From Antedon mediterranea (Eukaryota > Animalia > Echinodermata), in contig NC_092678.1 of NCBI RefSeq assembly GCF_964355755.1, positions 15,605,881-15,669,880 on the forward strand: a stretch of 64,000 nucleotides of DNA, in the 5' to 3' direction. The notes beneath the pieces are model-generated. The model saw nothing but the letters and a program-made list of their open reading frames with translations. It made no database searches and had not been told where the DNA came from. The translations under genes and the position numbers were made by a program. Numbering within the stretch: position 1 is the stretch's first letter; every line of letters begins with the position of its first letter. This document shows positions 4,701-64,000 of the stretch, one piece after another.

Positions 4701-7700
4701 AATGGTTTAAATGAAACAGCAAACACACACTATTACAATATTTCAGATTTCTTGGCATTTAATTATATACATTTTGAGTACAGCGTCTAGGCTTTTCAAT
4801 GTTCTGTTTGTTTTTACACTGTTTTCTTCCAAGCCGAAAATACAATGCAGTACAAGAAAATCACCCCGGCATCTACACAACAACTTATAAATTTTAATCC
4901 ATCAAGTTTTTATAACAAATGTAAAAGTACTTAAAGTATAGTATTGAATAAACGTTTTTCACTTTGTTTATTAAATTTACCTTAGCTTTTTCTTCTGTTT
5001 CTCTTTTTACTTTAGCTAATCTCTCAGCTTCAAGTACAGATTCTTTTTCCTTCAAACAAAAAAATAAAAGTTTACATTATAAATCATAATAAAACTCACA
5101 CAAGTATGGGCTATAAACCGTAGGTCTAGTGTACACAAAGTGCTTGTGTGTACTTTAAAGAACCTAGTACATCTCTGAAGAAAGGAAGGGTTACCTAGGT
5201 GTACTAGTTCACACAGCCAATGTCACACACAGCCACTACTTCTAGTAGGCCTCCTAGTTCCATAATAATTGATAGGACAATGAATAGTGATAAGCCGTTG
5301 TTTTGAATTTGCGCAAATTAATTTGTCAGGACTAAAAAGGTTTAAGATGAACTAAATCTGGGGCGGATTGCTATAAGCGGTCTTAGTGCTTAGCCGGCTA
5401 TATTTCATGACGTAGACAATTGCTATACCACTGTTTAAAATTAAAGCCTATGTACAGAAGAAACTATATTATTGGAATATATTATGTGTATATAATTACG
5501 GAGCCAAGTAGGCTATAAGAAGTTACTAATGATATTTGGACCCAATGCATGCTCTCACAACACAGTATAGTGGGTAAGTTGGATCTCACTAAACCTACTC
5601 GAAGGAGTCTTAAAACAGTCTTAAACCTCTCTTTTTGTTGATTTTACATATTAAATATCGTGAAAGACAACAAATTGAATGTTGAATTGAATTGATTGTT
5701 AAATCAAATAATAACGGTGATTTTATTCGTGTATAGGCCTAGAATAGATTTTCTCGCGTAAAAATATACGTACTGTTATGATTGCGATTTGAACAAGCGT
5801 GACGAACATTACCTTATTTGGTATTCTACGCGCAAATACGCCCTCAATTTGTACCTTTACGTGGTCTTAGCTAAGACTATTTCATAGCTCCTGTTCATAG
5901 CTTCACAGCTTACCTTTTTTCTTGCCATCTCAGCAGCTTTAATGATGTCTTGCTTGGCTTTCTTTTCGGCAGCTTTTCTTTCTTTTTCATCATCTTTAAA
6001 TTTCTTAATTCTAGGATCACAGGCATATGCGTTATCTGTTTCATAAAATGTTAAACAAAATGAATGAATTCATCACATTACTTGAATATTTACAAAGTGG
6101 CATTTTAAAAGACCAAGTTAGATATAAATATTTTAAAACATCTGACAAACTGAGTGACTGGAAAAGCAATTCAATTATTTTTCAATCAATCAATAGTTTA
6201 TAAAATTAATCAATAATCTGTCTGACATAAAATAAACACATTGTATTAAGAATAAAAATAAAAGTAGTCAGAAACTGAGTGAAGTACTTGGCAAAATATA
6301 TCAGGAAAAACTACATTCGGAGAGAGAGGGCTCACTACTTGATATTTCGACATATGTTAAAAAAAATACAGAGGGCGTGCTTTTTAATATTTTTAGCTTC
6401 ATATTTGAATATAAGTTTTTTAGATGTCACCATATCAATTTTCCTGAAAACCAATAGGCATGTTCTGCAAGTATGTATCTGTATAACACCAAAACATTCA
6501 GGACGATATCTTGAAAATGTGTGCGAACAAAAAAACAAAACAAGTGCTATACTTAAAAGCAAAATTATATTTTACCGAATAATGACGTTATTATATTTAA
6601 TTGTATTTTTCGGACATATCCCAAGAGTGAGAAAAAATGTGTTTAATTAGTATATTTGATATATAATGGTTTAGTCCAATGAACTTCAACCAACACCATA
6701 GAACACAAATCAATGAATCATATATTGTATATCCCACAAATTAAAACAAAACATGCTAATGATCTACATTAAAAAGTCGTTCATTCAGAAAAGACAGATT
6801 GGTAAACTTACCTACAAGTTGCCTTATTCTAGCTACTTCTTCCTTTTTCCTTCTTTGTCTTTCAACTTTATTCTGTTTCTCAATCCACCTCCTCTCCTCT
6901 CTATTTTCTCCCTTTTCTTTTTCCTCCTCATCTAAGTAAGAAAATTCTCTCCAAGACTGGAAATTATACCTATAATATCAAATTATACCAGAATATCAAA
7001 TTATACCAGAATATCAAATTATACCATTTATTTCTTTCAGATTTCAAAGTAAATACAGATTAAAAATTGAAAATATAGATTTTAAGTTTAAAAAAATGTT
7101 ATGACTATAAAAAATGAATTATTTAATATAGTCTATTTCCTAGAAAAACAATACATTTACATTAAATACTACAGTTGAGAATAAAGAGTATAATCATTAG
7201 CTTATACAAGATTTTAATTTTTGTTTATATTTATAAGCAAGAAACTAAAATAATTTTTTTTTTAATATCTAACCAGAAATTGTAGAATTTGTTGACTTCA
7301 TCAAACGTAGCATTTTCACCACCTAACGCTGGCACTCTTGGTTTCAGGGACCACCTGAACAAAAAAATACAATTATATCATTTTATAATATTTAATAAAT
7401 TATAATAATAGGGAGGTTTCGCAACCTTACGAATACGATAACGAAAACGGATACGTCACACATTTGTGAAACTTTTGAGCTGATCCCCATTTCACATTCG
7501 TAAAGCGTATTCGTGTTGACGAATATCACCAGTCATATTTGTAACTACAAAACGAGTATAGTTTTTGATCTATTTTGCACATTTTGCATTTGAATCAGGA
7601 ATGATTCATGATTATAATATAATTATAGATTTATTGAAAGTAATTTACTGAAGTAATTTACTAAAATGCCAAGTCAATTTTGATAAATAGCAGTTTTTAA

Positions 7701-17167: not shown

Positions 17168-33248
<16,081 letters not shown>

Positions 33249-48686: not shown

Positions 48687-51056
48687 CAGACTGGCATTGT
48701 TTCACTGTGGCAACATTTCTGATTTCGAGATGTAAATGGTGGAGAACCTGTTACTTTGCAGACTTTATTAAAGATATGGAAGATATTCTTTTTTTTTATT
48801 CCTCAGTAACAGTGAAGATAATTGTTTTAATTTGATGATACACCATTAAAGCAAAAGGTCCATGGCTACAGTGTTACTAGGCCTACAATTGTCCCTGGTA
48901 CCACCATGTTGAAATGTCACCAGAACTCACACAGTTGACTGAACACTCATGCCTACTTATGTACCACTAATAGATTGACTTTAAATGTCAGTGGGTTTTA
49001 AGAACAGACAGGATTACTACCGGTTTTTATTTTTGTACCTTGAAAATCTTTGGGGCAGAAAATTGTAAATACGCACGTACACAGCAAGACGTCACACTGC
49101 TTATTGTACTGTAAATCTCCTATGCTGAAAGTTTCAGGAAATGTTAAAAAATAATGACCAAATACAACAGATTATTTTCCTATATTTTTACGCTACCTTA
49201 TTTTTAATTGCAATAATATTTCATAATGATTAATATTATTATGATAATATAAATATGGCAGGATATCAATAGATAACCTGCATATAAAATTATATATGTT
49301 ATGTTTATGTTTTCTTTTATGCTTATTATTATTATAGAAAAAATATTTATCGATCAATTATCATCAAAACATGTACGTACTTAGAAGTAAATTAAAAGAT
49401 AAAATGAAAGTAACAACAACACTTATAGAAGCTCCTATGCGTGTAGAACTAAATAGCATATACAAAATAACTTTTAAAAATTGTATGTTGTACCCGTTTT
49501 GTAAAATACAAATTATTATCAGTTAAAATGATTGATAAGTTATTCCAATAAAACAAATACAGTGGAAACTGTCATATGCGACGCATCTATTCAAGGGACA
49601 CTCCTAGTAATGGTACATTTCATAAGAAACAAATTAGAGGCAATATTATGTTTAAATTATAGGCCTAAATGTCAACCATGCTCAAGAGACACTTTGTTGC
49701 ACCCTAATGTTATACTGTAGAAATAGCGCATGGCTTACAATTGAGAAACTATAATCTAAATAGTTGACATAGGAAATTAGTTTGTCGGTATTTGTTGGTT
49801 TTTATCAGTTTCCTTCTAAATACCAAGTTTCTATTTGGCGAATAAAATGCAAAATCACGCGGATAATCGTTAATTGTTGTGTTGCTGGTTTATTTTTGTC
49901 AACAATTAGAGATATTCTAGAAAGATTATATTGCGATTCGTGAAACGTGTACGGATGGTTGACTTTGTTTATCTAATAATAAGTGAATGACTTTGTAAAT
50001 GCACACACCGTAAAACTATTCCAAACTGTTGTCATAATACAATGAAAAGATATACAGTACAGTAATTGAATTGTTGATAAATGATTTGTTTGGAAATTCT
50101 GTGCTTATTTTCTTTTCGCTACAAATGAAATATTAAGTTTCTTTATGAGGTTATTGTGCTATGATTTCAACAGGTCTTCAGTATAATACGCACTTTCTTT
50201 TAGGACACCCTAAGTAAGGGGACACTTTGATGGTCCTGAATAATATTGGAAAACAAGTGAAAGTTAACATGCTTCAAGGGGCGGATTTAGGCGAGGGCTA
50301 AACAGGCTTTACAACACCCCCCCCCCCCCCCCCCATCCTCACTAAAATTTAACAGCCATATCTTTTTTTAAATAGCAACTTCAATTTCTCTGTGTATAAC
50401 ATTCCCATCATGGGATATTAAACTCAACACAACATGTAACTGTAGGCCTACTACAGTTTAATCCAACTCACTCAATAAAGTGTGCTTGCTTGTTAGTTAT
50501 GGTAATGAACATTTATTCTTTCAATAGTGCGAGAGCAAAGTTACAACCATCTTCTCGAATGGGTTTATCGTAATATGATTGAAATGATGACCATTTTTAT
50601 ATTTTCTATTATTTGTATTTGTTTTAATTAATTCTTTAATAAATGTTTTATAATTGATTGAAGAGTCTTACATGTTTATAGAAATCTATAAGTGTATTGT
50701 TACCTAAGCTTTTAACTAGTTGTAGCCAATGTAAGAAAATTACAATACAGAAAATGTGATGTTTAAAGATGTATTGTCTCCCAAAAAACATGAAAAATAA
50801 TTAAAGCAGACTTGGAATAGGTTATTCTGTAGTTTTAATAAAGTTAATCACTTCCGTAGGAAAAAACCCCGAAAAAACAAATTAAGTTTTCCCCTTATAA
50901 TATGACAAAATAAATGGTTAAATTCAACAAAAAATCTATTGGCTGGCAGCCAATTCAACTATTTTTTGCTTTAAGTTTTTTCAGGTAACTAATTTTTGGT
51001 CGAAGTGGATAATTATTATATGACATTAAAATGGCTTATTCAACAACAACAATTTA

Positions 51057-54000
51057 AACTAGAATTTAATTCGTCACTTTGACGAATTATAGGTGATCAT
51101 TGTTATCGTTTTAATGAAATTAACATTTTTTAAACATGCATGTACGTTAACATACGATCGTAAAAAGTTGATGTACGCCATCCTATGACATGATTGCATA
51201 TACACTTATAGTGCTGAGTTCTACCTATGTGTCATACAATATGTACAGTATATACTGTATATCTATATACAGTGTAGCATAGGTGAAATTACGGGACTCA
51301 TATCGTGTTCTAATTTTTTGGTATGATGGAATTTTCAAAATAAACTCGAAGATGACAATTTCGAAAGATAATGAATTGAGCAAATAAATATAAGGATTGG
51401 AAGAAAATTTGACACGTAGAAGCGCAATGCGCGGTCTTTGAAATTTGTATAACTTTGACTAAAGAAATTTAAAAACTACTTTTTAACTTCAACTGGCCAT
51501 ATGATAACATCACAACATCCGATAGGCTTAATTTTAATATGAATTCATATCTACATTTCATCAGCTTTCATAATAAGTTATAATCTTCAAGGTCACCTTT
51601 AATTCTGAAGAGCTATAAGATATTCAAATGTATGGTGTAGCTGAAATTACACGACCTAGGTTGTTCAAGTTTTTACGCGTGATGACGTCATCAAAATAAA
51701 AATGTTGACAACTCCTGAGAAAGATAATTAATTGAGCAAGCACATACTAAAATTTCGGCGAAAATCGGGCTCAAATAACGGAGATGCGCTCTATTGAATG
51801 TGATAACCCACACAAAAAGATAAAAATTACTAATTTTTTAATTCAAGTGGCTATTTGATGACGTCATACCATTTTGTACGTCTAATGTGTACATGAATAT
51901 GTATCTACAACCCAATGGCTTCCCGAATAAGTTAAAAAAATTGGGGGTCACCTGCCATTCTGAAGAGTTATATTCATTTTAAAAAGGCCTTATTTTTCAC
52001 CATTTTCAGCACTTTGATGCAATTAATTTGCGCATTTTGTTATTTTTAACCTGCTCGTATAGTGTTATTTTAAGTCGGAACTTACTCAAATTTGGTGAAT
52101 GTACTAAGGATGGTGAGTAGAACGCGATTTGTATAAAAAAATTGCAATTTTTACGCTTTGTAAGTATCGCGCGCGCAAAATATTTTTTTTGCGCAGTAAT
52201 TTTTTGAAACACGCAAATGGCCTAATTCATGCTCTAAATTGATTAAAACGTAATTTTGAGCTTTTTAAATTTTTACTGCGCGATTCCACACGCATGACCC
52301 TACGTGCGCACGCGTTTTTACTTGCTAATATTTTTACCCTTGACCTGAAGTTTACGTGTAGTGAATTTCATAAATATGTGATAATGAATTATGGATATAT
52401 GATTGATAATGTGATTTCACAAAATGGCGTATACGTGATGTCACGGATGAGTGATCACGCTGAAAAGCTTATTATGGCTAAGTTAAAGTATTTGAAAGAC
52501 ATTGTCAATTTTTTGTGATCATTGCTATTCAACTTTTTGAGATATTTGACGAACAAAAAGTGTACAGAAAGAAGAATAATAACTAGATCTAAACTCGTCA
52601 CTTGAGGACGAGTTTGGTTATCCGCCCGCAACAAAACATATCTTGCGCATTCAAGTACTTTTCAGTTGTGACTTTTCCAAAAAGTAGCCTATTCAAAATT
52701 AAAACTGTCCTTTCAGTGTATTAACCAAACAAATCTTTTTATTTAATTGCTTTCCCGTGATGGGATTCGATCCCGGTACCTCTGATACCAAAGTCGGTTG
52801 CACTACACATCGAGCCATATGAGCACCTGCTGAAGAAAATCCGAAGAAAGAGTCCTCGTTCATTCGGTATGTCGTGAACCCCCTCGATGCAAGTTGATTA
52901 TTACATATCAAACTTAAATCATAATTTTTACTATGATGAAATCTTCACAAATTTTAAACAGTTACATATTATGAAAGTGCATACTTTCAAGTTTTATATA
53001 TTAACATGTAAAGAAAAAAGATAAACGTTATGTATATTGTTTTACTCTTTGAATATGTTTATGTTAGTTTGATGATAATTATTTCAAAAATTACATTTAA
53101 TATGCAAATAATGTAGCTATCAAACACTTTTTAACATTCAAGACTATAATAAATTAGACCTATGATTAATACACTGCAAGAAAATAAAATAAAAAATGGG
53201 GGTAACCTTGCATTCTGATGAACTGTTTCATTTTTAAAAGTAGACATATTTTGCAACATTTTCACAATTTGTTGACGTTTTCGTGCGCAACCTGTCATGT
53301 TTAACGTGCTCGTAGAACGCCATTTCAAGTTGAAAAGTGAATAAAATAACGTAAAATTGTTAACCGAAGATTTAAAAACACAAATCGTGCAAAAGAAATG
53401 TTCATACGTGTTCTCTGCGTCGTGCGCGCGTAAAAATGTGCGCACCAGTGGCAATTTTTTTAACGCTTAAAATGACCTGAATCGTGCTCTAATTTAATCA
53501 GAAATTGATTTGAAGCATTTTAAAATTTCAAACGCCATTTACGCGCGCACTTTCTAATGTTACAAATTGGGGTAGCGTTAAAAAAGTTAACTATTGATGT
53601 GAAGCAAACGTGGCTGAAAATGACGTTAAAAAATATTCATTTGTTTCGAAGTTATAACCAATTTAAGATTTTCAGAAAATCACGCGTAACTTACGCTACG
53701 CGGCTCTGACATCGTCAAAAAGCTTGGCTGGACAACTTCAGTAAAATGTCTAAATGCTGAACAAGTTACAACATATTATGTTTACACGTTGAAGAGAAAC
53801 AGCGTGCACAAAATAAGAAGAGTAAAATATTTCAAACGCAATTTACGCGAAAACTTTCTAATCTCCAAAAATTTGTTAAACATTCCAAAAGTTAGCCATT
53901 GATGTGAAGAAAACGTGGCTGAAAATTTCGTTAAAAAATATTTATCGGTTTCGAAGTTATGACCGATTTAAGATTTTCAGAAAATCGCGCGTAACTTACG

Positions 54001-54258
54001 CTACGCGGATCTGACATTGTCAAAAAGCTTGGCAGTACATCTTCAGTTAATTGTCTATATGTTGACCAAGTTACAAAATGTTATGTTAACACGTTGAAGA
54101 GAAAACGCGTGCACAAAATCTGAGAAAGAAAGAAGAATAATAAAAAAAAAAAAAAGTAACACTACAACAACAAATGCTTATCCGCTTGAGGCGGATAACC
54201 AATAAAGATTTTATACAATAACAATAGGTGATCATTTTATTCTAAATGATCACCTAAT
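51057..54258 (-). mobile_element. Non-autonomous Helentron/Helitron2-type (DINE/HINE-like) element A
   Basis: Minus 3' end: subTIR AATGATCACCTA, hairpin AATTCGTCA-aag-TGACGAATT, CTAG (51059-51101); 5' end TAGGTGATCATT..AATGATCACCTA inverted pair (54225-54256). Confidence 0.75.
52581..54203 (-). mobile_element. Non-autonomous Helentron-type element B nested in element A
   Basis: CTAG 52583-52586, hairpin AAACTCGTC..GACGAGTTT, subTIR GGTTATCCGCC; other end TTATCCGC-ttgag-GCGGATAACC; internal ~300-bp tandem duplication (~53520-54120). Confidence 0.75.
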
Positions 54259-54282
54259 AATTATTTTTTTCAGTGGGACAAT

Positions 54283-54730
54283 TGTAATAAATTACCATTC
54301 CCTAACATATAGAGTAACATAGTATTTACATGAACATTCTAGAATAAGATGTTTTGATTTAATAAACCATGTATAATTAATAAGAACAATCAAGAACATT
54401 CCAGAAGTGCTATTAATAGAAACTGTAATCATGTAATAATGAGAAGTATAAAGAATGATCTAGAAGGATAGGAGCATCTTGTATATAAAGGGATGTAAAC
54501 TATTGTAAGGTTGTTGGATTAGAGGTTGGATGTTATATTGTAAAGTCATTGTGAAGCTGTTGTTTAAAGTGCTTACTGGATTGTTGAAAGTTGAAGTTGA
54601 TTGAAATTAAAGCTTTGTTTTTGAGTTATTTTACAACTTTGTGGATTTTGTGTGTATACTTTTATGTCACAAGGGAGTTCCTAAAGTATTTTCAACCGCT
54701 CGGAAACATACGTGAGAGGAGTTCGTGACA
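54283..54730 (+). mobile_element. Solo LTR, 448 bp
   Basis: TGT...ACA ends; 5-bp TSD ACAAT (54278-54282, 54731-54735); TATA-like GTATATAAAG at 54481; ATTAAA ~54606. Confidence 0.85.
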
Positions 54731-55169
54731 ACAATAAATCTTTAAATATTGTTTATTAGAAGTTCTTGGTGGTTTTCACCATCTCAATGTTAGAGTATGC
54801 AATATTCTATTAAAAGGTATCCATGATAAATGTGTATATATTTGTATAATGTATAGGCTTAGAAGTCAGTTTACAATTTGTGTAAATAGGCCCGAATACG
54901 TAAATAGGTCATATCTCGACAAATGACCAGATATTATATAGATTTATGTTAAATAAAGATAATTTTGTGAATTATAGCGAGTCCGTTATCTGTGTTTTGT
55001 TTACATAAGGTCGCACAGTGGGCCAGAATCAATTCAAAGTGTGTCAAAAGTCCAAAATGGTATAATGTGGAAATCCAAACTTTTTAATAATGTATTAGGA
55101 AGAAGTCACCTTAAATTATATAAATCCACTAATAATTTATTATTTTGTAAATTTGCATAGTGTCTTGTA

Positions 55170-55311
55170 CGAATTAGTAATTCGTTATTTCGAATTAATA
55201 ATTCGAAATTTCAAATTAGTAATTCGAAATTTCAAATTAGTAATTCGTTAATTCAAATTTTTAATTCGTTATTTCGAATTAATAATTCGAAATTTCGAAT
55301 TAATAATTCGA
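55170..55311. repeat. Array of short palindromes upstream of the transposase
   Basis: ~21-bp unit CGAATTA(G/A)TAATTCG + (AA/TT)ATTT, about 7 copies. Confidence 0.85.
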
Positions 55312-55376
55312 CCTCTGCCCTTTCTAATGACATCCCAACCATCCCGGATTACTTTAGCTAATGCAATCTGGTCACC

Positions 55377-56722
55377 ATGCGTCCTGAAAACCATTGGATT
55401 AGATTATATTTCAATCGTAGCTTAAATTATCAAGAGATTATTGAAATGTTAGCAGAAGATCATGATATTTTGATAAGTAAACGAACATTAAAGCGAAGGC
55501 TGAAAAAAATGTGCCTTAGTCGAAGAAAACGGCATTCTGACGAACTGGAAGTCGCTGCGTTCATTGAAAGTCAATTACAGACGTCAGGGATGCTACATGG
55601 GTACAGGTGGATGCACATTCGTTGCACACAAAATGGGTTAAACATAGATAAAGAGACGGTCAGAATAATTTTAAACCTTCTTGACCCAGAGGGTGTCGAA
55701 GCAAGAAGAAGACGACGACTACACAGAAGAATTTATCATGTACCTGGCCCAAACTATATCTGGCATATCGACTCGTACGACAAACTTAAGCCATACGGCA
55801 TTTGTATAAATGGCTGTATAGACGGATTCTCTAGACACATAATATGGCTAGAAGCTTACTTTACTAGCAGCAATCCAAAAGTTATAGCCGGCTATTACGT
55901 AAATTCTGTTCGCCAAAAAATGGGTTGTCCAAAGTCTATTAGAACAGATTTCGGAACTGAAAATTCTATTGTTGGTCCAATGCAGCAATTTCTTTGTAAT
56001 GAGAACAGCAGTTTTATACAAGGAACAAGTCAGCATAATCAACGAATTGAGAGTTGGTGGGGCATTCTCAGAAAACACTTTACTCAGTTTTGGATGGACG
56101 CCTTTAAACAACAAAAGAATGACGGTAGATATGATGGAGGTCTTATAGACAAATCTTTATTACAATTTTGTTTTATGAAAATTATCCAGGTAAGCAGTAC
56201 AGCAATTACATTGTGTGCTATGCATTATAGTCCCCAAGTACGACAATTATAATAATAATTTGGGCTTTCGCAACAATTTGAAAAGCAAACAATATTAGCC
56301 TAGAATTAAATCACTCCTCTTTTATTTACGATATTGTTTTTTTTTTCACGGTCTAAACTGTCATTAAACTATTTGTTTTTACAATATATTTGCCTTTTTT
56401 AAAGGATGAACTGGACACGGTTGCAAACGAGTGGAATGCCCATCGCATCTCAAAATCGAGAAATAGCCATGGTCCGTTTGGACGCCCGACATTGATGTAC
56501 AATGTACCATACTTATTCGGGGGACAAGAGTGTATTATTCCCGTTGATGTGGCTAAAGTTGAAGTTTGTGAAAGTGAATCCATCTTCAAAAGCCAGATTC
56601 CATGCGATAAGGACGTGTTCGACTTATGTTCCATATTCTTGGAAGAAAGGCAGCTATCGATGCCGAAAACATGTGATGAAGGTTTGCAGTTATACAGCAG
56701 TCTTAGAAAATATGTTTCTTGA
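55377..56722 (+). CDS. Integrase-core (rve/IS3-like) DDE transposase, 376 aa, two exons
   Basis: Exon 55377-56189 (CAG|GTAAGC) + 56405-56722 (AAG|GAT), phase 0, no stops; N-terminal HTH-like ISKRTLKRRL, GYRWM, RRRRLHRRIY..PGPNYIWHID, IDGFSR, IRTDFGTEN, NQRIESWW, WNAHRI; acidic triad in HID / RTD / RIE. Confidence 0.88.
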
Positions 56723-57404
56723 CGTCATCTGATCAAATGCCACAGCAAGCACGTGATATCACATTATCATGTTATAAATCGTTTTTTTTATTAATTAATT
56801 GTCGCTGTGATATTATTTCCAATACAAAGTTAGAATTGCAACGAACACAATGTAATGAATACAATATAAACAATTATATTTATAGTATTATGTTCAGTTG
56901 GTGATGATCAGACAGAATTGTGTTATGTAGCTGTACAATACAGTAAAACAGATGTAATTTAACAACAACATTTTGTTTATTGAAACTTTAATAACAGTAT
57001 TTTATTTCTGAAACAATTACAAAACTGTTGGCTACTAAAATTTGATCATAATTTAAAGATATATTGTCCCCCTGAAAAAATATTTTTTTTTAATTGTTTT
57101 GTTGAATATGTTATTTTAATGTCACATAATAGTTTTTCACTTTCACAAAAAAATGGGTCTGAAAAAAAATTATTTACCTAAGAAAACTGTAATTTAAAGC
57201 AAATAAATGGTCAAATTGGCTGGAAGACAATGAGTTTTGGGGTAATTTAACTGTTTAACTGTTTTGTCTTTCTATAGGTGAAATAATTTTTTTTTCTCGT
57301 TTTTTTTTCTTATGGAAACAACTTCATTAAAACTGCAAAATGGCCTATTCAAAGTCAGATTTAAAAAATCTTTATTCTTCATGATTTTGGGGGACAATAC
57401 ATCT

Positions 57405-60400
57405 TTAAAGTTTTCCAAAACCCTTGCCATTTATGATGGCTTCCTCCATTAGAGTTGTGAATTCCAATGGATCGTCATATCCACGGGGGAGGTGTAAATC
57501 CAACCCACATGTACTGGCTGTCGGGTAACCTCTCATCTTTCGCTCCTTACTAAAAAAAATTATATGTATCTGGTTGCTAAAACCAAGAGGGGGAATTGAG
57601 TCAGCACCAGTAACAAATGTTAGGAAGTCTCCAAGGGATGTCTTGGTCTTTTTATCTAAAATGCATAAAAATAAAAATGTTAAACATTATGAAATAAAAA
57701 ATGTATACTTTTTTCGTCTACCATTTACCCTTTCACCGCTCTTATTAGCATACTTTCGTTTGGTACAAGGAATTACAAATAGGGTATAGCGGTATAGTTC
57801 TTCAAGGTAAAGTTTGTTCGTGAATACACACAACCTTGTTTCTCTCTCGAAGGGCTATATTATATAACTGTAAGGAAATACGGTATTGTATCGTTTCGAG
57901 CCCTGGGGGTACCTAATTTTACTTTGGATATTCATTCTCAGCCCGAAGGATTGGGGGGGGGGGGTATCTCAACACCCCTCCCCTCCCCCCTGCATGTAAC
58001 GCCCCATCTAGAGTTTACTTTAGTTTACATTAAAATAAAGATATAAATACTGTATACAATACCTTCCGACTCTTGTAAGAAAACCTCCAGACAATACACT
58101 GTGTCCTCCTCTTGACTTCGTAAATTGGAGCCTGCCTCTGAATATTCAACTGTCATTAGTGTCTTTAGTACTTGCCGTGTCAGTCTTTTCCCCTCCAGAG
58201 TGAAAAGTGGGACAAATTGGTTTGGGTAATCTCTTACGTTTTCCCAAAGTACTCCCAATCCTTCAGTGAACTGTCGGATTTCACTATGTGTTCTAGATTA
58301 GGAGAAAATGAATGCACCATGTAAATTATAATCACAATTAGCAAATAAAATGTGTTCACATTCATACGACCTGTACAATAATTCCAAGCCTTGATTTAAA
58401 GTTCAGCAATTTTACAGAAGAATCACCCAGAGCAGCCGTCAACCGACAAATAAAAACCAAAGGAGAATTTCATTTGGATGGATTTCGATGGATTTTCCTT
58501 CACGATGCTTTTAAATCCTAATGCCAAAATGTTTCTCCTGTCCTGAACTAGACTTAACCCCTTGTGATTTTCCTTAAGGAAATATGCATAATGATACCGT
58601 ACTATTTCTTGGATTAAAAAGGGCTAGTAACTAATTGTTTACATACATACATATCTATATCTAGTTTACCCGCGTCTAACACTGAATAACCATGTGCTTA
58701 AAATATATTATCATTATTAGGCCTGTTACGTTACCTGTAAAACAAAAAATGCTTTAACAGACTTGACACGACTTGTTGTTTTTGATTGAAATCCGAGTTA
58801 TACAACGTCATGACTCCTTGATCTGCCGCCCAATCCGATAATTCATGTGAAATAGTACGGTACTCATCCGTCGTTTGGCAATTTGCAATCTGGATAAAAA
58901 GATACTGTTACCATCATTCACAAATTAATCAGTCGAGTCTCGTACGTAGGTGTAGTATAATGACTACAACATTCAGCCAATTTAGGGTTTAACAGGGGGT
59001 GGGGGTGGTGGAAGGTGTGGGGGGGGGGGGGGGGGTTGTTTGGACACAAAACCGAACCATGAACCCCCTTGGCTACAGGCCTGTTTAAGCGTCTCCTGAA
59101 ACATTTGGTACACAAACCTTGTTTCCTGGGATTCCACTAAACTATTTTTAATAGCTTGTTGTAGTTGTAAGTCTTCTTCATCGTCTGTATCGTCAGAGTC
59201 TGAACATAAATTCACATATGATGTATATGCCGACCTGTAAACAAAAATAAAATTAAAATTAAAAATCCTTAAAAGAAAGTTTATATGCATAACAGAATAC
59301 TTCTCATACAAACGATCACGGGTAATGTTCGGAAAATTTTAATCGTTGTTCGTCAATCACACCTTACACAGCATTGTGGCATATTTCGAATAATAAGTTT
59401 TTCGATTGACTGGATGTTGAAGGCATATGCGATTGACTTGTCGAGGCTAAATTCATCATTGAGTCAGTAGGTCTATCAGGTACCTGTAAATGGAGCAATT
59501 CATTATAATGCTGGAGTTTACTTTATGAATATTGTATTATAAGTGCACGATGAGTTATTTCACCTTTCTGAACAAGGTTATTTACTACCAGAAAAGATGG
59601 ACTCGGTCTTCTGTTAATTAACAAAAATGAATCACACTAGTATATCATTGAGTTGTACCACAATTATACAATGTATAACTTATGGGTTCCAATTACAATT
59701 TTAAATATTACCTACCTTAAACGATACGGTTGGTGTGTCGGGCTGTACAAGTGGGCGTGTTGGATGGTCTATTTCTACCAACGGTACATCATTATCCCCG
59801 TCGTCGTCATCAGATGACTCGCCACTTCTCTTTCGTTTTACGGCTTCATCTTTTCTGCCAACTGGAGTGGTTTGAAGGTAGAACCTTAGAACTGCCATTT
59901 TGCATTCAGCATACAGCTCCCCAACGCTCATGTCTTTTTTCAAGGGATGTTGTCGAAAATCACATAGCTTGCAGTTGAATTCGCTTAGCTTTCCTTTAAA
60001 TGACAGTCCATCCTTAAAAAACAAGTTAGTGGCAATTTCTAACAGTTCATTATAATTTGTGGACTTTGGCACTATTAGCTGTCTTGTTCCTCCTCCTTTT
60101 TGTTTGCGAACTTGTTTGAAGCATTTTGATTCAGCGTCGTAGTCCAACCACCCTATATCGATTTTCCGATTTGTTTTTTGGGCATTTTTGTTCCCTAACA
60201 GCGTGCTTGAGCGCGTATCCCAAAGATTTCCGTCCTCTTCCACGTCCTCTTCATCGTCCCTTCTCTTGTTCAATTTTTGTTTGAGTTTTTGTAGAACTGT
60301 TTCTTTTTTACTTTTACCTTTGCGTCTTTTGTCTTTGCAAAATTCGCGTACAGCAATTCTGTCCCCAAGGAGAGGAATAAATTTCGAAAGGTCTTCGTCA

Positions 60401-61112
60401 GTCATGGCTACTATAACTACTGAATCAATCTGCAAAAACAAAAGTTGATTAACATCATGCATTACATAGTCACATTAAGGGGTCGAGTGAAAGTTTCAAT
60501 ATATTTGATTAGGCATACCAATGATTGATCTAAACATTAAACCTTTTAAAATGTGTGCGTACTGTGTAAAACATCGTGGCATGCAAGCGACCCGTATGTG
60601 CTACGTTAAATTATGAATTTTCTTAACAGATTAGGATAAATCATGTATATGTACATATATCAATTTTAATATTGATTAGATAAACACTACAACTTTAAGG
60701 GAAACAGTTTATGGAAACAAAATTTGAATTTGATGTACGTTTGCCTTTTATTGGGTGAAAAACTTCAATATTTGGGAAAATTACAGATTTCACAGTACAA
60801 ACCCCCTTTTTACGCCGCTTATTAGGGGGTTCACAAAAACCCTAAACATTCCCCCTCTCCCTGGATTCGCAACTGGGCGTCGTGTGAACGTTTCAACCTC
60901 ATACAACAAAGATGCAGAATAGGACTATAGGCCTATATTAATCTTATAGAGGATACAATATTTAATGACAAATATAATTACAGTATAATATTTAGTATTC
61001 CCATGATTTAAGCATCATAGACATTGTTTTTTTTTACCTTTTCATCCCTCATTCTCTGTATGTACTCCTCTTCAATTCCTCGTTCCTCCATGTATTCATA
61101 TAACTTATCCAT
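57405..61112 (-). pseudogene. SAM-UIM-HECT (G2E3-like) E3 ubiquitin ligase gene, apparently internally deleted or disrupted
   Basis: Exons 61038-61112 + 59716-60429 (SAM-like: YIQRMRDEK|IDSVVIVAMTDEDLSKFIPLLGDRIAV; KGGGTR), a broken segment ~59300-59483, 59118-59234 (UIM-like DEEDLQLQQAIKNSL), 58735-58889, 58063-58292 (QFTEGL), 57405-57655 (LTFVTGADSIPPLGF..YPTASTCGLDLHLP..GFGKL*); start of the HECT N-lobe missing and phase mismatch between 59118 and 58889. Confidence 0.78.
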
Positions 61113-61494
61113 CGCCGTATCTTTCGTGAATTTAATGTAGGGCCTATGGTTTTATTCCCCAGTAGAGCTTCTTGTACCGCCAACCGAATTAAGCCCTAAT
61201 GATTGCACAAACAGACTTTGGTAAGCGAATGGCTACTTTTTTGCGTAAAAGTTGGAGGCTTCCCCACTATATTATCATGGGGTAATTCAAGTGTATAGCT
61301 ATAGCGACTTTAGCCTAGTATAAAAGTACAGTTATTGGTTAGTAATATAACATTAATGTATTCTATTTTTTAAAAACTTATTCAGATTAAATTAAGGTAT
61401 GATTAAGTGTTAATGTTAATAGCTAGCCGTAATGTGTGTACTCTCCAGTCAAAAAACGGAATACACAGGGATGTGCCTTCGCTATTGAAATTTA

Positions 61495-61741
61495 CTGGGT
61501 GCTCAAAACAGAGACCTCGAAAACAAAGATCAGATACCCGGGTCTCTGTTTTGGAGATTTTATAAACAGAGACCCCCCACCCCCACCAAAAAAAAAAACT
61601 TCTCGATATTACATTATTTAAGGGGTATCTGTTTTCCAGAAAATTTCGAAAACAATCGAGAAAATCTCTAAAACAGATACCCCCCTATATAACGTAATAT
61701 CAAGAAGTTTTAGTGGGGGTCTCTGTTTTCGAGACACCCTG
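61495..61741. mobile_element. MITE
   Basis: GGGTGCTCAAAACAGAGACC / GGTCTCTGTTTTCGAGACACCC inverted ends with internal AAACAGAGACC repeats. Confidence 0.6.
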
Positions 61742-64000
61742 AATTTACCATAACACTTGATTGTTTTTGCAATTAAATTCACGTTTTGTTTTATATGTAT
61801 TGTTTCCCAATTACTTATACTTCTAACAGTTATGAAATGACACTGTCAAATGTAGCAAATCTGTCAAATAAAAACTTGATTTCCGACGAGATAACACACA
61901 TTTACGTGATGCGATTTATGAAATAATATGAAGCTTTCATGCCTAGTTATTCATAATCCGACAATTATTAGTGGAGATAATTTTAAAAACCGTTTAAAAA
62001 CAGTGATTTTAAACAAGGTCGCGTTTCGGGATGCACAACGCGCGTGTCGCTTATTTACGGAATACAATTGATATGTGCCCCATTTGCACTCATTTAATAT
62101 CCTTCATTGAAATGGGACATAACTTACATAAGGTTTCGATACTATAACTAACTAACTAAGTTTTATTATGATAAAAGAAATATAGGCCTAACTTAATATC
62201 GGTATGCACGCACATGGTTGACGTTGAGTTGTGCTAAATTACGAATAATATTATAGTATTGGAATTGATATTATCGAATGAAATTATTAAGACTAATTCA
62301 TTTAAATACGTAAAATTAATCAAAGTAATATTTATTTTGAAGGATATAAATATGTATACATATATTCTTTCTATTAAAGTTAATGTTAAAACTGGTCATA
62401 CAGTTATTAATTGCTGACTATTTGCCATAGTCCTACAGCGAAGCCTAAAACTTTAAACATTCAACTAAAATAATATGTTAATTCATTTTCGATGATTGAG
62501 TTGAGTTCAACAAAAACAAAAGATAAAACGTACTTACTGAAATATAAAATATGCTGGAATTTCACTGGAACCGTAGGATAAAACAAACTATTTATTTTGT
62601 AAGTTTGTATGAAGCAGCAATGGTGATGGAAATTAATCTTACGTATTTATAGTTTTAATAAGTAATTGCTTAACCAATCAAATTGTCGGAAAATGATGTA
62701 AACCTAACATCAATCAAATAAGACAGTGAATTGGTTTTTATCAACCCGGCACTTTTTTGGGCATGATTCATGGTTTCCCTTCCATTCCATATTTACATTC
62801 CTCGTGGTTTATATCATGTCCCTTATTTCCTTGTCTTCATTTTCCACATGCTCTAATCCATCATATGCCTATGTTTACATTCCAAAAAATGACACTCATG
62901 GAATCACTCTAAACTTATGAGTTGATCACTTCTTGTAATGAAATAGATGCGATTTGTAATTATATAATAATAAAATAACATCAGTACGTATATTGTTCGT
63001 TTTACTATACTAAATCTTCAATTTTCAACTATTGTACAATTCTTGATTTAAACTGTTTTGTTTTTACTTAGATGGTCTGTGATTAGTTTTTTTTGTTTAA
63101 ACTGTACCGTACTTTATCATCTAGGGGCGTATCCGGTGGGTTGGGTGGCGGGGGGGGGGGGGGATGCTGTCGTTCCCCCTTCTTTTTTCAATAAAACAAA
63201 TTGAAATTGAAATTGAAATTGAAACGGTCGGCGAATCAAAATTTCACAAACTCACATTAAGGTTGACACCCCCACCCCTCTTTATATTCATTGTTGGCTA
63301 ATCTATCATCCCTTGTCATTAATTTAGAATGTTTACACTCTTATGTTTGACAATAAAGTTGAAAGTTAAGAAAATATTGTCATATTGATTCGAATATCAA
63401 TACAGTATCAAGGGCGGGTCTACTACCTTGTCATCTGCCATTTGGCAAGTCCATGAGGGGGCGGGTCAAAGAATTTAAAATAGAAGGGGAGAGGGAGCAG
63501 AGGTAATGTTTCTCAATATGACATGTTCATTTCAACTGAGAAGCAAACAAAAAAGAGGAAGGTAAAATTTCCCGGCTATAAGATTTCAATTTCCAACAAC
63601 ATTTGTCATTTAGCGTCTCGGACGTAAATTGAATCCGCCCCTGAGTATTGTACGTTTTGTATACCATTTGTTTGAAAAAAGAATCCGTGTACTATAGTAG
63701 GCCTACAGGAATTTTTTTGAAAATGGCCAAAATATCACCTTTTTTAAAATACAATTATTATGCGATAATATTGCCATATGCGTATATTGTGTTATCAACA
63801 TGTTATAGAGCTATAGTTGCATTCCTCTATAATATTTTTAAATAACTGGTGCAAGACATAATCTGTCAGTCCATGGCAGTATTTTAAATATTAAATGTAT
63901 CATATTATTTTCATTGACAGAATATCGTAATCCCATAAACTCGTTATGATCGATGAAATCAACGGCTAAGCTGCAACGACTTGTTGCTATTGTAATGTAT

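Follow-up and report, generated by a model that had tools for sequence, protein, structure and literature searches.

We analyzed a stretch of 64,000 nucleotides from the echinoderm Antedon mediterranea (contig NC_092678.1, positions 15,605,881 to 15,669,880 of the forward strand), referred to as a whole as the window. Toward its right end lie two convergent genes, a DDE transposase on the plus strand and a HECT ubiquitin ligase on the minus strand, with an array of 21-bp repeats in front of the transposase. A first-pass annotation of the sequence had proposed that the two genes form one mobile unit in which the ligase is cargo. Our analysis points to a damaged copy of an IS3EU/GingerRoot-type transposon whose lineage carries the ligase as a standing second gene.

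The Transposase and Ligase Genes

The transposase open reading frame encodes 376 amino acids in two exons separated by a GT-AG intron and is free of stop codons, as the first-pass annotation had described (Table 1). The protein matches Pfam rva_4 (E = 4e-29) and carries a D132, D191, E225 catalytic triad (DD33E). By eye, 29 of the first 33 core residues are identical to those of IS3EU-1_CGi_2p, and the sequence places the enzyme in the IS3EU/GingerRoot type. An identity as a long terminal repeat retroelement or a Ginger1 integrase was rejected because inspection by eye revealed no gag-, reverse transcriptase-, or RNase H-like open reading frame of at least 100 amino acids near the transposase, as had been noted before, and no H-H-C-C pattern in transposase residues 1–130 or in alignment A1. 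A search with exon 1 returned 1772 matches among 1913 candidates; those with names come from a crinoid (75% and 95% identity), other echinoderms, bivalves, fish, and a firefly, and two scans of viral contigs found no relative. The sister protein P0322 differs from the window transposase at four positions and in the tail. A seven-residue C-terminal end is common to all three sister transposases, and the window copy has four other residues in its place. Judged from this alignment, the tail is frameshifted, and the enzyme is not intact as first proposed.

The ligase gene comprises seven exons running from 61112 to 57405. Its C-lobe matches Pfam HECT (E = 6e-11) and contains the catalytic Cys within PTASTC. 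The stop codons of the two genes are 682 bp apart, and 356 bp of this gap are occupied by a repeat with TTAA at both ends, in agreement with the earlier description of a miniature inverted-repeat transposable element (MITE) filling about half of a gap of some 680 bp. An end of this MITE is also present in a spliced sister contig from run X5, so the insertion is not private to the window copy.

The ligase gene of the window copy is not whole. The window exons match the sister ligase P0281 (688 amino acids, covering positions 26–304 of the 306 in Pfam HECT) at 93–100%, but the stretch of P0281 from residue 307 to about residue 470, which makes up most of its HECT N-lobe, has no counterpart between 59118 and 58889. 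The exons that flank this gap are out of phase. With about 165 residues missing from the N-lobe, which binds the E2 enzyme, the window copy as read from its sequence could not encode a working ligase. An open reading frame at 58426–58623 was considered as the start of the N-lobe and rejected, as it gave no Pfam match and is unlike P0135 and P0281. A search for longer proteins with exon 6 gave no match.

A sister copy of the ligase is spliced. Run X5 contains spliced joints at both predicted C-terminal introns at a depth of 369–427, compared with 5–23 for the unspliced contigs; no run is on record as RNA, and taking X5 as RNA is a guess. Beyond exon 5, the spliced contig carries sequence that the window lacks and that codes for the final portion of the missing N-lobe part. 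In run X1, contig depth is about 22–26 per allele in the flanks, 273–463 over the transposase, and 107–223 over the ligase; contig depth is not copy number, and we take these values as a hint only.

We modeled the ligase head from P0133 with a 70-sequence alignment (mean pLDDT 80.7). Residues 1–62 of the model adopt a SAM fold, matching the SAM domains of tankyrase and BICC1 (Z = 7.7, rmsd 2.4–2.5, 61 aligned residues). Residues from about 102 to 217 adopt a ubiquitin-like (Ubl) fold (best Z = 9.7, rmsd 2.3, 80 aligned residues), and nearly all of the matches listed are Ubl folds. The predicted layout is SAM, Ubl, UIM-like, and HECT, the SAM domain being supported by fold only. The first-pass annotation had read the gene as a SAM-UIM-HECT ligase: the HECT C-lobe stands, the SAM domain stands as a fold, the UIM is a resemblance in motif, and the Ubl domain had been missed. 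Likewise, the Pfam comparison it had suggested recovered rva_4 and HECT but neither SAM nor UIM. The UIM-like motif also occurs in P0135 but is not general across the ligase family; it was rejected as a family trait because the UIM pattern matched 2 of 70 partner proteins and missed the window's own motif.

Among representatives at 50% identity, the ligase head has 1146 relatives at E ≤ 0.001, and most of the full-length relatives have a C-terminal HECT domain, which belongs to one of two types. In P0157, a protein kinase follows the same SAM-Ubl head, an arrangement that recalls the α-kinase second gene of fungal IS3EU. P0248 (4970 amino acids) and P0267 (5924 amino acids) each contain 14 stretches that match the Ubl part of the head. 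We also considered whether the ligase is G2E3 proper and rejected this, as its head folds as SAM and Ubl and the RING/PHD-like zinc fingers, of which G2E3 proper has three, gave no Pfam match in P0281, P0133, or P0135.

Table 1. Features of the element and its immediate surroundings (positions within the window)
Feature	Position	Strand	Basis or remark
148-bp repeat with CACAGTG...CATAGTG ends, adjoining the array where the left tip is expected	55014..55161	.	Sequence, depth
21-bp quasi-palindromic array, 6.8 copies	55170..55311	.	Period 21; putative transposase-binding sites
Transposase exon 1: N-terminal helical region and DDE core (D132, D191, E225)	55377..56189	+	Open reading frame, Pfam, alignment
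Transposase exon 2: final 4 residues unlike the 7-residue end in 3 sister proteins	56405..56722	+	Open reading frame, sister alignment
High-copy MITE, TTAA at both ends, inserted at the ligase stop codon	57053..57408	.	Contig loose ends at 57053 and 57408
Ligase exon 7: HECT C-lobe, catalytic Cys (PTASTC), stop	57405..57655	-	Pfam, spliced joint in run X5
Ligase exon 6: end of HECT N-lobe	58063..58292	-	Spliced joints in run X5
Ligase exon 5	58735..58889	-	P0281 comparison; joint and loose end in run X5
Internal deletion site: exon(s) for about 165 HECT N-lobe residues absent	58890..59117	-	P0281 comparison, phase clash
Ligase exon 4: acidic stretch and UIM-like motif (resemblance only)	59118..59234	-	No Pfam match
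Ligase exon 3: low-complexity linker; uncertain donor site	59368..59483	-	Exon prediction, sister comparison
Ligase exon 2: remaining SAM fold, helix, Ubl (β-grasp) domain, acidic linker	59716..60429	-	Fold model, exon prediction
Ligase exon 1: start of SAM fold	61038..61112	-	P0133 starts with the same exon

Element Ends and Recurrence of the Convergent Pair

The palindromic array noted in the first-pass annotation is present and ends 65 bp before the transposase ATG. Its unit is matched nine times at three or fewer mismatches, against 0.02 expected. Relatives were taken from a scan of 25 of 64 parts of a set of metagenome contigs; of the 466 transposase loci confirmed there, the 80 best were retained and merged to 71 groups. 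In 26 of the 80 loci, the transposase is preceded by a tandem array with a period of 20–22 bp (or half or double this). Sixteen loci with flank were picked by hand, and in 12 of them TACGG precedes the array by no more than 60 bp (background 3.7%). Loci L040 and L042 share a 4460-bp stretch at 99.8% identity that begins exactly at TACGG, and their flanks are unrelated; L040 carries a HECT gene. A whole 2.9-kb element at L046:296-3180 has both TACGG tips, a 6-bp target-site duplication (TSD), and a transposase but no ligase. It is the one relative in which the 6-bp TSD was seen, and no ligase-bearing locus showed both tips. The right tip of L012 is of the TA..TA type. IS3EU ends are given as TAYGG..CCRTA with a 6-bp TSD in the examined portions of two papers (PMC10045372, PMC12730594). 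The TACGG tips of the relatives and the 6-bp TSD of L046 fit this description, so the array in the window likely belongs to the left end as its subterminal array.

The termini themselves are not visible in the window, as the first-pass annotation had stated: the best tip score is 12.9, compared with 20–34 for 14 of 15 training tips. In the 148-bp repeat that adjoins the array, the two ends, CACAGTG and CACTATG, are asymmetric and may resemble those of Transib/Chapaev elements; a clear TSD is lacking. Its depth in run X1 is 3637 at 55044, compared with 21.6 at 54820–54858, and in the organism B runs it is higher-copy than the transposase. It is probably a different element, and the window copy has probably lost its left tip. 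This loss, together with the lack of a working ligase, likely renders the window copy immobile. On the other side, contig depth in X1 does not fall to flank level before 64000, which hints that the right end lies beyond this position. CCGTA at 61115–61119 was rejected as the right tip because of its score of 8.2, the absence of an array, and near-identical contigs that run past it. A 246-bp inverted repeat in L005 was also rejected as element ends; it is unlike the TACGG tips and belongs to a different element. Separately, a 456-bp unit at L031:2297-2752 immediately precedes a transposase and is bounded by TACGG tips in inverted orientation; a third tip lies at 4813, and the unit is possibly a non-autonomous element nested at the end.

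Recurrence at unrelated loci, which the first-pass annotation had put forward as the test of its own proposal, is found both in metagenome loci and in sister copies. By BLAST, 18 of the 71 groups have a HECT or ligase-head match downstream of the transposase on the opposite strand. Sorted by the length of downstream flank, a convergent HECT is present in 17 of 32 groups with at least 1.5 kb, 15 of 23 with at least 2 kb, 11 of 16 with at least 3 kb, and 7 of 7 with at least 5 kb. A same-strand HECT was found in none of the 71 groups, and an upstream HECT in none of the 14 groups with at least 1.5 kb upstream. An HMM search added L011 to the HECT-bearing loci. At L075:2582-3256, a convergent open frame that looks HECT C-terminal-like by eye was missed by both BLAST and HMM searches, so the linkage counts are likely underestimates. 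In L012, both genes are enclosed by inverted arrays, and the ligase is an intronless open copy of 600 amino acids.

The transposases of the 19 HECT-bearing loci are 38–83% identical, and the side and orientation of the ligase are fixed. The catalytic Cys is kept in 19 of 19 distinct C-lobes, though C-lobe identity drops to 9–57%. Congruent trees had been suggested as a further check. Transposase and C-lobe distances do correlate (Mantel rho 0.32, p = 0.001, 20 pairs including the window, with L006 and L030 dropped as duplicates), a correlation to which common host ancestry could add; the congruence is broken in L012 and L056, whose HECT sequences suggest that ligase domains have been swapped between element families. 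Two sister pairs are also indicated in the crinoid: transposase P0002 with ligase piece P0285 on a 39.0-Mb contig, and transposase P0322 with ligase P0282 on a 28.6-Mb contig. Each pair has consecutive accessions, which implies adjacency; identity to the window genes is about 98% overall and 95–100% by exon, and both contigs represent other chromosomes.

These data could also be read as a host ligase gene that lies by chance beside an unrelated insertion and was copied by segmental duplication, which would fit the lack of termini in the window and the depth above flank level that a duplication would also give; recurrence of the pair in distant organisms, its end-to-end enclosure in L012, the sister pairs on different chromosomes, and the patchy, multi-copy distribution of ligase homologues in starfish, oyster, fish, and firefly make this highly improbable, and the linkage counts largely refute it. 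Judging from relatives, both genes very likely move as one unit. The ligase is likely a standing second gene of the lineage and not a recent capture; the single mobile unit of the first-pass annotation is supported, and "cargo" understates the place of the ligase in it.

The element likely belongs with IS3EU/GingerRoot on its transposase and layout, with termini and TSD known from relatives. The shared features are the lineage of the transposase core (compared by Pfam and by eye rather than in a tree with Repbase sequences), the lack of an HHCC zinc motif upstream of the core, the TAYGG-type tips of relatives of the window element, and two proteins with the second gene in opposite orientation; a 6-bp TSD is seen in the ligase-free L046. 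That IS3EU encodes two proteins is stated in the examined part of PMC10853768, and α-kinase and TET/JBP are described as fungal second genes in the IS3EU papers as far as examined, PMC12730594 among them. The window element differs in that its second gene is a SAM-Ubl-HECT ligase, its 21-bp subterminal arrays are not mentioned in the portions of the IS3EU literature examined, and it has no visible ends. Our literature search found no paper that ties HECT or a ubiquitin ligase to IS3EU, though Repbase entries and subscription journals lay outside its scope and may state it; "HECT" and "ubiquitin" are absent from the main text of PMC10045372, PMC12730594, PMC6839031, and 10.1101/2021.09.26.461848. 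Compared with the class IV divergent HECT ligases (G2E3, GL-Metazoa), as these are presented in the examined part of PMC3673628, the ligase here lacks RING/PHD fingers, has a SAM-Ubl head, is multi-copy and transposon-borne, and keeps its catalytic Cys.

The Role of the Ligase

Other DNA transposons carry a fixed helper gene, such as Harbinger with Myb/SANT and ISL2EU with an exonuclease. The present element resembles these in having a conserved second gene, but the helper is a protein-modifying enzyme rather than a DNA-binding or nuclease protein. It is very likely, judging from conservation, that whole copies encode an active ligase and that the element benefits from it. A neutral passenger, i.e., a captured fragment of a G2E3-like host gene with no role in the element, is improbable. 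Capture of gene fragments by GingerRoot elements (PMC6839031, as far as examined), the description of the human and mouse G2E3 HECT domains as non-functional (PMC3673628, likewise), and the fragmentary state of the window copy and several annotated sisters would all agree with it. However, a passenger sits poorly with the fixed side and orientation and the invariant Cys in 19 distinct loci, the correlated distances, the intronless open copy in L012, and the spliced sister.

In the explanation that we favor, to which we assign a probability of roughly 45%, the window holds a damaged IS3EU/GingerRoot copy, the HECT ligase is a fixed second gene, and the ligase is weakly predicted to dock on the element's own transposase. 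The transposase would bind the 21-bp arrays, cut at the TACGG tips, integrate, and leave a 6-bp duplication, as expected from its relatives and from DDE chemistry. The SAM-Ubl head would recruit the ligase to the transposase, and the ligase would ubiquitinate the transposase or adjacent proteins. Such ubiquitination could clear the complex after integration or cap the level of transposase. We regard recruitment by the head with either of these outcomes as plausible, at somewhat less than even odds. When the sister transposase P0002 was modeled together with the ligase head, the complex scored 0.59, compared with 0.00 for the best of three controls; contacts agree between runs to at least 77%, and the partner pLDDT is 76. 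Of 78 solved complexes, 51 attain the mark used for docking, as do 2 of 108 mismatches, yet scores of 0.60 or below include only five solved complexes and all four passing mismatches. Docking of the head on the transposase is thus weakly supported by the model.

Several observations weigh against this explanation. At docking scores in this range, a pass is more likely to be false than true, and the complex model used a transposase without its first 78 residues and the ligase head only, with no interface given. The ligase may be dispensable in cis, given that L046 is whole without it, and one family member, P0157, carries a kinase instead of HECT. Among the groups with at least 3 kb downstream, 5 of 16 gave no BLAST match, although one was rescued by HMM. 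The trees agree only partly, with L012 and L056 bearing the "other" HECT type. The adjacency of the sister copies is implied by accession numbers rather than read from DNA, the X5 spliced contig has small indels relative to the window around exon 5, so the expressed copy may not be in frame, and no tip was found in the window.

A rather less probable alternative keeps the same mobile unit but directs the ligase at host silencing or chromatin proteins. Here, the SAM and Ubl domains would imitate interaction modules of the host, such as those found in Polycomb PRC1, and present a silencing factor to the HECT domain. Polyhomeotic makes use of a SAM domain. In the fold comparison, the best match to the Ubl domain is the ULD of PCGF/BMI1, and the C-terminal domain of RING1B ranks fourth (Z = 8.6, rmsd 2.9, 90 aligned residues); the SAM matches to tankyrase and BICC1 are also consistent with mimicry. 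Fungal IS3EU elements bear TET/JBP genes, for which an escape from methylation is proposed in the examined part of PMC12730594. However, the Ubl folds of USP11, ATG5, and ATG12 are tied within one Z unit, Foldseek ranks SATB1, UFM1, and LC3 first, and the fold matches have identities of 8–14%; a common fold shows no function.

Returning to docking on the transposase, we tentatively extend it to animal IS3EU in general, which would then be obligate two-enzyme elements with their own transposase-docking, complex-ubiquitinating E3 ligase, many multi-copy "G2E3-like" genes, interpreted in genome papers as adaptive expansions of host genes, being these transposons; we consider this extension somewhat doubtful. 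In a hadal sea cucumber, 20 G2E3 copies were read as adaptation (PMC9700323), and in Cottus, G2E3 matches are among the repetitive elements with changed copy number (PMC5638112), according to the examined parts of these papers. Such copies may be transposons. Retention of a catalytically conserved HECT across the lineage implies that ubiquitination matters for transposition or for survival in the host, and the element would offer a simple two-protein system for testing the role of ubiquitination. The window copy is broken, and what it offers is a lead to whole sisters.

Other Features of the Window

Directly left of the element, a cluster of very high-copy repeats spans 50670–54700 and holds a 305-bp tandem pair at 53522–54119; another copy of the TTAA MITE family lies at 50762–51058. 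Upstream of the ligase, a palindromic repeat at 61595–61711 shows higher contig depth and weak Rfam miRNA matches below the gathering threshold. Over 54500–64000, Rfam gave three such weak miRNA matches, all on palindromes and below gathering, and no histone 3' stem-loop. The left part of the window consists, by eye, mostly of repeats and the exons of an MCM-like gene. These exons lie on the minus strand at 23804–28239 and include a GDPGTAKSQ motif; we take the gene to be an MCM-family helicase. At 27073–27943, a 72-bp tandem array with 95–99% identity repeats an exon end and is possibly an assembly artefact or a recent expansion.

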